Shown in pieces: positions 54,615 to 57,187 of a DNA stretch of 64,000 nt. The number at the start of each line of letters is the position of its first letter. Within the stretch, counting starts at the first letter, position 1. Under the pieces are notes generated by a model, which had not been told where the DNA came from, did not search any database, and saw only the letters and a list, made by a program, of their open reading frames with translations. Location of the stretch: NCBI RefSeq assembly GCF_046105845.1, contig NZ_CP151004.1. One strand, written 5' to 3'. The DNA comes from Escherichia coli (GTDB lineage: Bacteria; Pseudomonadota; Gammaproteobacteria; Enterobacterales; Enterobacteriaceae). The translations under genes and the position numbers were made by a program.

Positions 54615-54887
54615 ATGGCACTCCCCCGTATTACCCAAAAAGAGATGACTGAACGCGAGCAGCGTGAACTTAAAACACTGCTGGATCGGGCGCGGATTGC
54701 GCATGGTCGCGTACTGACCAACTCCGAAACCAACAGCATTAAGAAAGAGTACATCGATAAATTAATGGTCGAGCGTGAGGCTAAAGCGAAAAAAGCCCGC
54801 CAGTTAAAGAAAAAGCAGGCTTATAAACCGGATCCTGAAGCGTCATTTAGCTGGTCAGCAAATACGTCGACGCGCGGCAGGCGCTAA
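54615..54887 (+). CDS. yjbD: YjbD (DUF3811), 90 aa, basic and lysine-rich
   Basis: MALPRITQKEMTEREQRELKTLLDRARIAHGRVLTNSETNSIKKEYIDKLMVEREAKAKKARQ... Confidence 0.85.
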   Translation: MALPRITQKEMTEREQRELKTLLDRARIAHGRVLTNSETNSIKKEYIDKLMVEREAKAKKARQLKKKQAYKPDPEASFSWSANTSTRGRR

Positions 54888-54943
54888 TGAACAATCAACG
54901 CCTGAGATTTTCACTCGTCTGTGTGGACACAATCTTCCCCTCA

Positions 54944-54982
54944 CCCTAACCCTCTCCCCGAAGGGGCGAGGGGACTGTCCGA
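54944..54982. repeat. GC-rich intergenic palindromic repeat (box C-like)
   Basis: cccctcaccctaaccctctccccgaaggggcgagggg; a motif I recognise as recurring in enterobacterial intergenic DNA. Confidence 0.4.
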
Positions 54983-55019
54983 GCACTTTTTGGACGTTTT
55001 CATCAGTCTGAGGCGTTAA

Positions 55020-55892
55020 TCAGCGTCCCTTCTTTTTACGCCCCGGCGAGGTAAAACGCTTACCGTTGGACGCCGGGCGACCGCCTTTTTCCGCCGTTTT
55101 TTCCATCTTAACGACTGGACGTTTGATGCCCGCCGTTTTCGGTTTGGTCTTCGTTTTAGGTTTTGCCTCGGAAGAGGAATTTTCGATGAGCTTAAAGAGG
55201 TCGATTAACTCATCGTCGGTTAAATCGCGCCACTCACCCAGCGGAATGCCGCTTAAACTGACGTTCATAATGCGCGTACGCTCCAGCTTTTTCACTTCGT
55301 AACCAAAGTGCTCGCACATGCGACGGATCTGACGGTTCAGTCCCTGCACCAGGGTAATGCGGAAGACAAACGGCGCTTCTTTTTTGACTTTGCACTTTTT
55401 CGTCACCGTCCCGAGGATCGGCACCCCCGCCCCCATACCACGAATAAATTCATCGGTAATCGGTTTATCGACCGTCACCAGATACTCTTTCTCATGATCG
55501 TTACCCGCACGGAGGATCTTATTCACCAGATCGCCGTGATTGGTGAGGAAAATCAGCCCCTGGGAGTCTTTATCCAGGCGGCCAATCGGGAACACGCGTT
55601 TGCTGTGGTTAACGAAATCGACAATGTTATCGCGCTCGCCATCTTCGGTGGTGCTGACAATACCGACGGGCTTGTTCAGGGCGATAAGTACCAAATCTTC
55701 GGCTTCCCGAGGCTCAATCAACTGACCGTTTACTTTCACAACGTCGCCGGGTTTCACCTGATCGCCAATGGTGGCTCGCTTGCCATTAAGGAACACATTG
55801 CCTTGCTCGATATAGCGATCCGCTTCGCGGCGTGAGCAAATTCCGCTTTCGCTGATGTATTTATTTAAACGGACTGATGAGTCGGGCAGCAT
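55020..55892 (-). CDS. rluF: 23S rRNA pseudouridine synthase RluF, 290 aa
   Basis: [40 protein letters not shown]... (S4 domain plus RsuA-type catalytic domain); basic C-terminal tail. Confidence 0.95.
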
Positions 55893-56239
55893 AAATTCTC
55901 CTGTAAAACGCGGAATATACCGTACCTCTTAGCGGGGAAAAACAGGGTTATGCGGCAACGTCGAAATTAAATGTGATCTGCCACGCCTTTTATCACAAAA
56001 GTGTCTCCGGAAGTACGATGCAAATTTGCCTGGCAAAATAAGGATAATCAACATATTACGAATCGCTGCACACCTGTGCTGATGACTACTACGCAGAGAA
56101 ACAAATGTGCAAGAGAAAGCGCTATTTCTCCCCATGCAAAGAGTGAAAAATCGCTTTGAAAGGCCATCATGATGGGGTTATATCAGATCAAGCGGTGAGA
56201 AAGCGTATTTGCACAAATGTGCAGAACCAGGAGGCGGCA

Positions 56240-57187
56240 ATGGAAAACAGTGACGATATCCGTTTGATTGTGAAGATTGCCCAACTCTATTACGAACAGG
56301 ATATGACGCAGGCGCAAATCGCGCGCGAACTGGGTATTTACCGCACCACCATCAGCCGCTTGCTTAAACGAGGCCGCGATCAGGGAATTGTCACCATCGC
56401 CATCAACTATGACTACAACGAAAATCTCTGGCTGGAGCAGCAACTGAAGCAAAAGTTTGGCCTGAAAGACGTTGTGGTGGTGTCGGGAAATGATGAGGAT
56501 GAAGAGACTCAACTGGCGATGATGGGGTTACACGGCGCGCAACTGCTGGATCGCTTGCTGGAGCCTGGCGATATTGTCGGTTTTTCCTGGGGTCGCGCGG
56601 TGAGCGCACTGGTTGAAAACTTGCCGCAGGCGGGGCAATCGCGGCAGTTAATCTGCGTACCAATTATTGGCGGACCGTCCGGTAAACTCGAAAGCCGCTA
56701 TCATGTAAACACATTAACCTACAGCGCGGCAGCGAAGTTGAAAGGAGAATCGCATCTCGCGGATTTTCCGGCTCTACTGGATAACCCCTTAATTCGTAAT
56801 GGGATCATGCAGTCTCAGCACTTTAAAACCATCTCTGCCTACTGGGATAATCTGGATGTCGCCCTGGTGGGAATTGGCTCACCGGCCATTCGTGACGGCG
56901 CTAACTGGCATGCGTTTTATGGTGGTGAAGAGAGTGACGACCTGAATGCCCGCCAGGTTGCTGGCGATATTTGCTCGCGCTTTTTTGATATTCACGGCGC
57001 AATGATTGAAACGAATATGAGTGAAAAAACACTCTCTATCGAAATGAATAAATTAAAGCAGGCACGATATTCCATTGGCATTGCCATGAGTGAAGAAAAA
57101 TACAGCGGAATTATTGGTGCACTGCGTGGAAAATATATTAATTGTCTGGTAACGAATAGCAGCACAGCTGAACTATTACTGAAATAA
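56240..57187 (+). CDS. sorC: SorC-family transcriptional regulator of the sorbose operon, 315 aa
   Basis: ATG at 56240 after AGGAGG; N-terminal HTH (MTQAQIARELGIYRTTISRLLKRGRDQGIV) plus sugar-binding domain. Confidence 0.85.
   Translation: MENSDDIRLIVKIAQLYYEQDMTQAQIARELGIYRTTISRLLKRGRDQGIVTIAINYDYNENLWLEQQLKQKFGLKDVVVVSGNDEDEETQLAMMGLHGAQLLDRLLEPGDIVGFSWGRAVSALVENLPQAGQSRQLICVPIIGGPSGKLESRYHVNTLTYSAAAKLKGESHLADFPALLDNPLIRNGIMQSQHFKTISAYWDNLDVALVGIGSPAIRDGANWHAFYGGEESDDLNARQVAGDICSRFFDIHGAMIETNMSEKTLSIEMNKLKQARYSIGIAMSEEKYSGIIGALRGKYINCLVTNSSTAELLLK

Follow-up and report, generated by a model that had tools for sequence, protein, structure and literature searches.

The spacer between yjbD and rluF

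The window, the whole 64,000-nt stretch of Escherichia coli DNA that was analyzed, contains the convergent genes yjbD (54615-54887, plus strand), a 90-aa ORF annotated DUF3811 in matching E. coli genomes, and rluF (55020-55892, minus strand), which encodes a 23S rRNA pseudouridine synthase of 290 aa. Within the 132-bp spacer that separates them (54888-55019), the 37-mer cccctcaccctaaccctctccccgaaggggcgagggg is found at 54937-54973; read on the minus strand, it is CCCTCGCCCCTTCGGGGAGAGGGTTAGGGTGAGGGG. The initial annotation had placed this sequence at 54940-54985: it is indeed present there, but starts 3 nt away from the position given, and the end had been set too far along. The description of it as GC-rich and partially palindromic holds, with two pairing registers in 54936-54974. 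In one, 54936-54946 pairs with 54964-54974 (11 nt, 91% complementary); in the other, CCCTCTCCCC (54950-54959) is set against GGGGCGAGGG (54963-54972), with one mismatch (by eye).

The element is not a chance feature. Both the literal sequence (allowing up to three mismatches) and the published degenerate consensus of the family to which it is assigned below have a single match in the window, and neither has any in 100 dinucleotide-preserving shuffles. A 43-aa ORF with a GTG start spans it on the minus strand, and was taken as mechanical. An Rfam scan of the region at permissive E-values yielded no family reaching its gathering threshold; the best match, Antizyme_FSE (20.2 bits against a gathering threshold of 40, E = 0.2), was put down to a chance likeness of the CCCUCACCC...GGGCGAGGG stem.

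Membership in a known repeat family

On the minus strand, 54938-54972, with G as the next base, is an exact match to the TM_ECO consensus, 5'-CCCTCNCCC-N3-6-GGGNGAGGG-N3-GGGNGAGGG-[G/T/C/-] (Holder et al., 2015; PMC4666352). The resulting 36-nt core (54937-54972, minus strand) consists of block 1 (CCCTCGCCC), the loop CTTCG, block 2 (GGGAGAGGG), the loop TTA, block 3 (GGGTGAGGG), and the final G. TM_ECO copies are divided into type A, with TTA as the second loop, and type B, with CCG or similar (PMC4666352). The window copy is “type A mm,” having TTA as its second loop and one G/A mismatch between blocks 1 and 2; this is the most frequent class among the 23 MG1655 copies listed there (Table 1 of PMC4666352). 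Compared with the MG1655 copies in that paper, loop 1 is the sole difference in the 36-nt motif, and the copies at iscR-trmJ and ppc-argE have the same 36 nt as the window.

TM_ECO is stated to be the same as a motif first described as BoxC in the 1990s and rediscovered by the Maher laboratory as PIT, the “potential intrastrand triplex” element (PMC4666352). A fourth name, HPG1, was given by Kaplan et al. (2016; PMC5100583) to a putative G-quadruplex/hairpin switch, dGGGAGAGGGTTAGGGTGAGGG; this 21-mer, GGGAGAGGGTTAGGGTGAGGG in the core, is matched exactly on the minus strand, with the conserved C-rich 5' flank (the criterion being at most one mismatch). A survey of stem-loop repeat families gives BoxC as 56 bp long, with 32 copies in E. 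coli (PMC2267715), and megablast matches between the window element and its paralogs are close to this size, at 56-57 bp. The equivalence to the original 56-bp BoxC is based on the statement in PMC4666352 together with the size and copy number in PMC2267715. With its exact fit to the consensus on the minus strand, the window element, which the initial annotation had called box C-like, is almost certainly a copy of BoxC/PIT/TM_ECO. The family is thus not a new one, having been described since the 1990s and re-described three times. BoxC was originally described by Bergler and, reportedly, by Bachellier.

Alignment of the window copy with those at seven other E. coli loci (ygfF-gcvP, downstream of fimH, tkt-ypfG, yihS-yihR, iscR-trmJ, alx-sstT, and ppc-argE) extends the repeat unit to ~79 bp (54933-55011), in the arrangement TnTT, core, GACTGTCCGnGCACTTTTTnGACTTTGTCATCAGyCTGA, which exceeds both the published 36-nt motif and the 56-bp BoxC figure; in megablast, the longest match to a paralog extends over spacer positions 48-124. 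The core is strongly conserved among the paralogs, a mismatch included. Also inside the unit, in a region conserved in the paralogs, a consensus scan finds a weak second hairpin on the plus strand (54976-54996), TGTCCGAGCACTTTTTGGACG followed by TTTTCATCAG, with only three G-C pairs. At some loci a type B and a type A core stand as an inverted pair, an arrangement already known; when these double elements were checked for full palindromy, the cores alone proved to be inverted repeats, the outer arms not matching.

Copies in E. coli genomes and elsewhere

When a 62-nt query (54931-54992) was run by blastn on 5,426 complete E. coli genomes, all but one of them (5,425) had matches, at 95,459 places in total; single genomes have between 1 and 35 (median 19), and plasmids account for just 68 of the places. 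Among the matches listed, there is no annotated feature at the query's other loci; constant intergenic placement is a family trait, and the window copy, between the stops of yjbD and rluF, agrees with it. The motif is therefore far from unique, at ~19 copies per E. coli genome, and its initial interpretation as a recurring intergenic repeat stands. By the same token the element itself is of little import, as an ordinary copy of a known repeat family with ~20 members per E. coli genome. Lineages differ more than tenfold in copy number: ST131 genomes have two or three places, part of which low count may reflect copies diverged from the type A query, and others have up to 35. Strain 2013C-4991, whose spacer is 100% identical to that of the window, has 15.

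A collection of phage sequences was essentially without the element (three records matched, none annotated). A plasmid collection had 454 matching records, by genus mostly Klebsiella, Rhizobium, and Sinorhizobium and mainly at 80-90% identity; its best matches, by closeness and by length, are to Escherichia records, several of them chromosome-sized. Neither collection points to a mobile-element carrier, and a plasmid or phage carrier was set aside as a candidate.

Presence and absence at the locus

The spacer is not found in every strain. A 551-bp query reaching across both gene ends was compared with the E. coli genomes, full-length coverage being counted as filled; by this measure, 1,773 of 5,425 have the spacer. 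In the remaining ~3,650 the query is split into two pieces over a 419-bp span, with 77-79% of the 551 nt covered, and ~10 nt of the query are shared by the two megablast pieces. In the three empty genomes viewed (O157:H7 TX 376-2, Rb-23, and CNREC_004-43), the stop codons of yjbD and rluF abut, as ...AGGCGCTGA|TTAGCG....

The direction of change was read from the yjbD locus of 80 other species of Enterobacteriaceae, including E. albertii, E. whittamii, more Escherichia species clusters, Citrobacter, Klebsiella, Salmonella enterica subsp. arizonae, Enterobacter, and Kluyvera. The two stops overlap by 4 nt (for example, GACGTTAACGTC) in 44 species and abut, with a spacer of 0 nt, in 30. One species has a spacer of 3 nt and one of 12 nt; one, a Pluralibacter genome, has 125 nt made up of two REP-like units; one was an alignment artefact, its sequence being that of overlapping stops; and two have a different neighboring gene. 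Overlapping or abutting stops in 74 of the 80 species mean that the spacer was gained in E. coli, from an empty ancestral state, and we consider it very probable that the spacer as a whole (54888-55019) is a derived insertion. Since the ancestral site has no spacer, all of the DNA between the two stops counts as inserted.

The empty site is a palindrome, GGCGCT-GATT-AGCGCC, to which both genes contribute their last codons, with CCTTCTTTTT after it; in a simple scan it scores as terminator-like for yjbD. The O157:H7 empty site has GGCGCTGATTAGCGCC, again followed by CCTTCTTTTT. The junctions place the insertion in the middle of this palindrome, where the 3' ends of yjbD and rluF meet. It is bordered by direct repeats on the plus strand: a left copy, AGGCGCTAAT (54879-54888), covering the last codons and stop of yjbD, and a right copy, AGGCGTTAAT (55011-55020), identical to it at nine of ten positions. 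The corresponding empty-site sequence for the left copy is AGGCGCTGAT. In other Escherichia, naturally empty sites have AGGCGTTAATCA or AGACGTTAATCAGCG, so the target may originally have matched the right-hand copy. Just to the right, a consensus scan finds a terminator-like hairpin, GGCGTT-AATC-AGCGTC and then CCTTCTTTTT (55012-55037, plus strand), whose 3' half is the last codons of rluF; it is a copy kept from the ancestral yjbD/rluF palindrome.

The left part of the insertion (54889-54936) is specific to this locus and outside the repeat family. In a blastn search of E. coli genomes (E ≤ 10) these 48 nt were found at one place per genome in 1,795 genomes, with 1,772 full-length matches, all at this locus; the remaining matches are partial or weak, for example one within nth at E = 10. 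A truncated second arm, of type B, was considered for this part and rejected, since local alignment with the sequence between the cores of double BoxC elements scored no better than shuffles did. By local alignment it weakly resembles the insertion's own right end alone. A 14-nt inverted match, ATCAACGCCTGAGA (54894-54907) with TCTGAGGCGTTAAT (55007-55020), is 86% complementary, with a score reached by 1% of shuffles; a direct match between the left part and the right end, TTTTCACTCGTCTG with TTTTCATCAGTCTG, is reached by 3.6%. The ATCAACGCCTGAGA arm is in effect an inverted copy of the target.

On this evidence, an insertion of ~122 bp accompanied by an imperfect duplication of ~10 bp brought BoxC to the yjbD-rluF junction. 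The ~80-bp unit did not simply insert by itself, since the left 48 nt are not part of any repeat family. The element may have arrived by template switching or by an insertion resembling transposition, with homologous recombination then carrying it from strain to strain. We know of no transposase, terminal inverted repeats, or clean target-site duplication defined for BoxC.

Two filled alleles are found in the E. coli population. The window type, in ~190 genomes, has an intact core. The K-12 type, in ~1,580, has a left part 93.5% identical to that of the window type and two core substitutions, with CCCTTTTCCC in block 2 in place of the window's CCCTCTCCCC, and so does not fit the published pattern. 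The decayed block 2 would explain why this locus is missing from the MG1655 table of 23 copies, which has no entry between 4.07 and 4.31 Mb (PMC4666352). Identity across the spacer (93.8%) is similar to that of the flanks (95.8%), which we count as no constraint at the locus.

The filled or empty state is not tracked by the flanking haplotypes. Over 760 nt of flanking sequence (260 nt of yjbD and 500 nt of rluF), the window differs at 16 positions from the empty O157:H7 TX 376-2, at 27 from the filled 2013C-4991, and at 39 from a filled K-12-like genome. That 2013C-4991 nevertheless has the window's spacer suggests that the spacer has moved between lineages, by short-tract homologous recombination. 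With ~1,800 filled and ~3,600 empty E. coli genomes the locus is an unusually clean natural experiment, if of modest value, and is suited to an isogenic-style comparison of the effect of BoxC on 3' end formation in convergent genes. Neither the strain-variable nor the derived nature of the spacer was part of the initial annotation.

Possible functions

The best explanation, and a probable one, is that the element is a copy of the known BoxC family, inserted in the yjbD/rluF palindrome and spreading as a selfish or neutral repeat without local function. As to function taken by itself, a selfish or neutral, structure-prone intergenic repeat with no function specific to the locus is still the reading to which we incline, with less assurance. 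Four observations favor it: the element is absent at this locus in most E. coli and nearly all relatives; the core of the commonest filled allele, the K-12 type, has decayed; the ancestral terminator-like hairpin has been kept beside the insertion; and copy number differs more than tenfold between lineages. In such a scheme BoxC would spread as a non-autonomous sequence, selfish or neutral and prone to structure, with a preference for gene-end or terminator regions, a niche also used by REP; wherever the core occurs as a single strand, in RNA or in DNA undergoing replication or transcription, a strong hairpin would form. That paralogs share so conserved a core, down to a mismatch, could on the other hand reflect selection for a function, with a protein or a structure as its target, rather than recent spread.

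At the RNA level, a hairpin in the 3' untranslated region might protect the yjbD and rluF mRNAs from 3' exonucleases, as REP does, or might insulate the convergent units from each other by pausing or terminating RNA polymerase; a cis-acting role of either kind is unlikely. The predicted structures are suitable. In G-quadruplex-aware folding with RNA parameters, the core hairpin has a free energy of -23 kcal/mol, against -12.6 for the G-quadruplex, and as RNA the whole 132-nt spacer forms one long imperfect hairpin on either strand, with the core at its apex (plus strand, z = -3.8; minus strand, z = -2.5). The weak hairpin at 54976-54996 is followed by a T-run within the unit; at four or five of the seven other loci there is a terminator-type hairpin just past the right end of the unit (by eye); and convergent genes flank six of the 16 HPG1 members (PMC5100583). 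No U-run follows the core hairpin on either strand, however, the stem is weakened in the majority filled allele, and two thirds of E. coli genomes and almost all of the outgroups do without the element here. BoxC elements also have no bias in orientation, gene distance, or gene class, and, as far as the work of Hoyne and Maher is cited in the same paper, act neither as promoters nor as terminators and leave RNA polymerase and conjugation unaffected (PMC4666352).

At the DNA level, the G-rich strand could fold as a triplex or G-quadruplex that stalls polymerases and raises local mutation or recombination, and be kept as a source of variation (Holder et al., 2015). We rate this as a shade less likely again. 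The sequence is compatible with both structures: blocks 1 and 2 form Watson-Crick pairs with one G/A mismatch, every triad of block 3 with block 2 is G*G, A*A, or T*A, all compatible with reverse-Hoogsteen pairing, as the rules for a purine-motif (class II) triplex require, and the four G-tracts fit the G-quadruplex rule. In vitro, the only setting in which either structure has been reported, the isolated G-rich strand forms a stable triplex (by CD and NMR, on near-identical oligonucleotides) and the triplex motif causes a polymerase stop in primer extension (PMC4666352); a switch between G-quadruplex and hairpin has been reported by CD (PMC5100583). At yjbD-rluF a regulatory role for HPG1 finds no support. 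With its complement, however, the same strand forms a duplex; the triplex was not detected in duplex DNA, and in vivo DMS footprinting showed no protection at the motif (PMC4666352).

The variability of BoxC loci can likewise be read in more than one way. At these loci, of which Holder et al. list ~63, variation from strain to strain far exceeds that of control intergenic regions, and missing motifs have been interpreted as structure-induced deletions (Holder et al., 2015; PMC4666352); five of the five loci viewed here are also polymorphic. At yjbD-rluF, though, the variation is the element's arrival, rather than deletions that it caused: the empty alleles hold the ancestral junction, AGGCGCTGATTAGCG, and not a deletion product of the filled allele, and the flanking coding sequences are not rearranged. 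Presence or absence of BoxC can thus be polarized here as gain, which challenges the published reading of these loci as unstable. Selection for evolvability is, on general population-genetic grounds, a weak force in a recombining species. The reverse polarity, in which E. coli started out with the spacer and most lineages lost it by an exact deletion, such as slippage across the 10-bp direct repeats might cause, is very improbable: such repeats around a structured palindrome are a classic substrate for replication slippage, and deletion is how Holder et al. read absent motifs (PMC4666352), but the stops overlap or abut in nearly all outgroups, E. albertii, E. whittamii, and other Escherichia clusters included, and a repeat-to-repeat deletion would leave AGGCG(C/T)TAATCAGCG in place of the AGGCGCTGATTAGCG or ...TTAACG found at E. 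coli empty sites.

Comparison with REP and MITEs

What the locus adds to the known BoxC family is minor: a derived insertion in a common terminator palindrome, a flanking duplication, a decayed K-12 allele, and alternation between REP and BoxC. The initial annotation had called the element distinct from the REP elements at six other intergenic sites in the window. It has no sequence similarity to REP, and REP is not found in 54888-55019 with the consensus used here, GCC[G/T]GATGCG[G/A]CG...CTTATC[C/A]GGCCTAC, a narrow pattern. The same pattern gives roughly the stated number of REP sites, in that there are six positions, but these fall at five sites (1139, 19670, 32509, 37093, and 41230/41302).

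In general character the two families are alike: BoxC, like REP and BIME, is short, GC-rich, imperfectly palindromic, intergenic, and present in many copies. It differs in lacking the GTAG/CTAC motif, in having ~20 copies rather than several hundred, and in its three-block architecture (C-block, G-block, G-block), which is specific to BoxC. To our knowledge no RAYT-type transposase is linked to it.

The two families nevertheless meet at individual loci. At ppc-argE, iscR-trmJ, and tkt-ypfG, a REP/BIME allele replaces BoxC between the same boundaries in other strains; at yihS-yihR there is a 71-bp difference, with diverged sequence between alleles. Clean empty and filled junctions were sought at these four loci, and none was usable, the differences being allele replacements or otherwise messy, so that yjbD-rluF is the only one of the five polarized with outgroups. 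There, too, a REP-like pair fills the junction in the Pluralibacter genome. Alternation at three loci and at this junction suggests that REP and BoxC occupy the same gene-end niche, and turnover between them may account for part of the reported variability of BoxC loci, as far as five loci, one of them polarized, can indicate.

Enterobacterial MITEs such as ERIC/IRU offer a second comparison. Like these, BoxC is small, non-coding, structured, intergenic, and polymorphic for presence or absence, and the yjbD-rluF copy is flanked by a direct duplication. Unlike those of MITEs, the duplication is imperfect and seen at one site, and part of the insert lies outside the family; nor do we know of a matching transposase or defined terminal inverted repeats for BoxC.

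Together, these likenesses allow a more speculative proposal, that BoxC has recently been mobile as a non-autonomous element, inserting in gene-end or terminator palindromes with a duplication of ~10 bp, and that it has its niche, and possibly its mobilizing machinery, in common with REP/BIME. We regard this as a tentative idea. If it were true, the “instability” near triplex motifs would largely consist of element gains and turnover between REP and BoxC alleles, and not of triplex damage. The MITE-like features seen so far come from the single site at yjbD-rluF, with its 10-bp imperfect duplication and a 14-nt inverted repeat that includes the target sequence.

The yjbD/rluF junction and its alleles

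Among 80 other Enterobacteriaceae species, surveyed at about position 3271-3277 of each locus (L013-L092), 44 have a 4-nt overlap between the stop codons of yjbD and rluF within a perfect palindrome, for example GACGTTAACGTC, and in 30 the two stop codons abut. The C-terminal Arg codons of YjbD and RluF are reverse complements of one another, and paired they make a hairpin; the T-run next to it falls after the hairpin, within the rluF coding sequence.

The window has a 132-bp spacer at this junction (54888-55019), with a BoxC copy at 54937-54973. In the equivalent K-12-type allele (L001:1501-1629, from the K-12-like strain BHUCD01), the BoxC core is decayed, with CCCTTTTCCC where the window has CCCTCTCCCC, and the allele therefore fails the published TM_ECO pattern. 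This decay would explain why the yjbD-rluF locus is missing among the 23 published MG1655 copies (PMC4666352).

The window's spacer is 100% identical to that of strain 2013C-4991, but their flanks show 27 differences in 760 sites; the nearest flanks to the window's belong instead to an O157:H7 allele without the spacer, with 16 differences in 760 (window 54615-55520 compared with loci L002 and L003). The window sequence here is a mosaic, which implies short-tract recombination around the insertion. Downstream of rluF is a 343-aa ORF (window 56156-57187), at the position of which the matching genome's annotation has a sugar-binding transcriptional regulator; in K-12-like genomes, unlike the window, pepE adjoins rluF. 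This ORF region is a strain-variable insertion adjoining the yjbD-rluF locus.

Alternation of BoxC and REP

At three other loci, a BoxC segment and a REP/BIME segment occur as alternative alleles in different E. coli strains, with the same flanking boundaries: ppc-argE (fetched loci L012 vs. L093-L095), iscR-trmJ (L010 vs. L098), and tkt-ypfG (L008 vs. L099/L100). This alternation suggests that the BoxC and REP families have a common insertion niche. In Pluralibacter sp. UBA7423, the yjbD/rluF junction independently holds a 125-nt spacer (L092:3274-3398) in which two units resemble REP, GCCTGATGGCGCTGCGCTTATCAGGCCTAC and GTAGGCCGGGTAAGGCGTGCAGCCGCCACCCGGC, and make up the spacer; here, too, both junctions have AGGCGG-like sequence.

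Elsewhere in the window, a scan for REP heads with the narrow pattern GCC[G/T]GATGCG[G/A]CG found six positions (1139, 19670, 32509, 37093, 41230, and 41302) in five intergenic sites, roughly consistent with the initial annotation, which had placed REP elements at six other intergenic sites.

BoxC abundance in other genomes and records

A 62-nt type A BoxC query (window 54931-54992) matched 1 to 35 places per genome by BLAST in complete E. coli genomes: only 2-3 each in ST131 genomes, among the matches listed, and 28-33 each in several STEC and avian strains. This between-strain spread may partly reflect divergence from the query.

Three BoxC-like matches (61 nt at 88.5% identity) are present in each of two Campylobacter phage records that have no annotation, MG065686.1 and MG065691.1. 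Such matches are unexpected for a Campylobacter host; contamination or chimeric assembly is a possible source. In PLSDB, several “plasmid” records rich in BoxC copies have lengths of 1-4.9 Mb and resemble whole or fragmentary chromosomes that were deposited under the wrong category. Plasmids of Rhizobium, Sinorhizobium, Azospirillum, and Aeromonas also have partial matches similar to the core.
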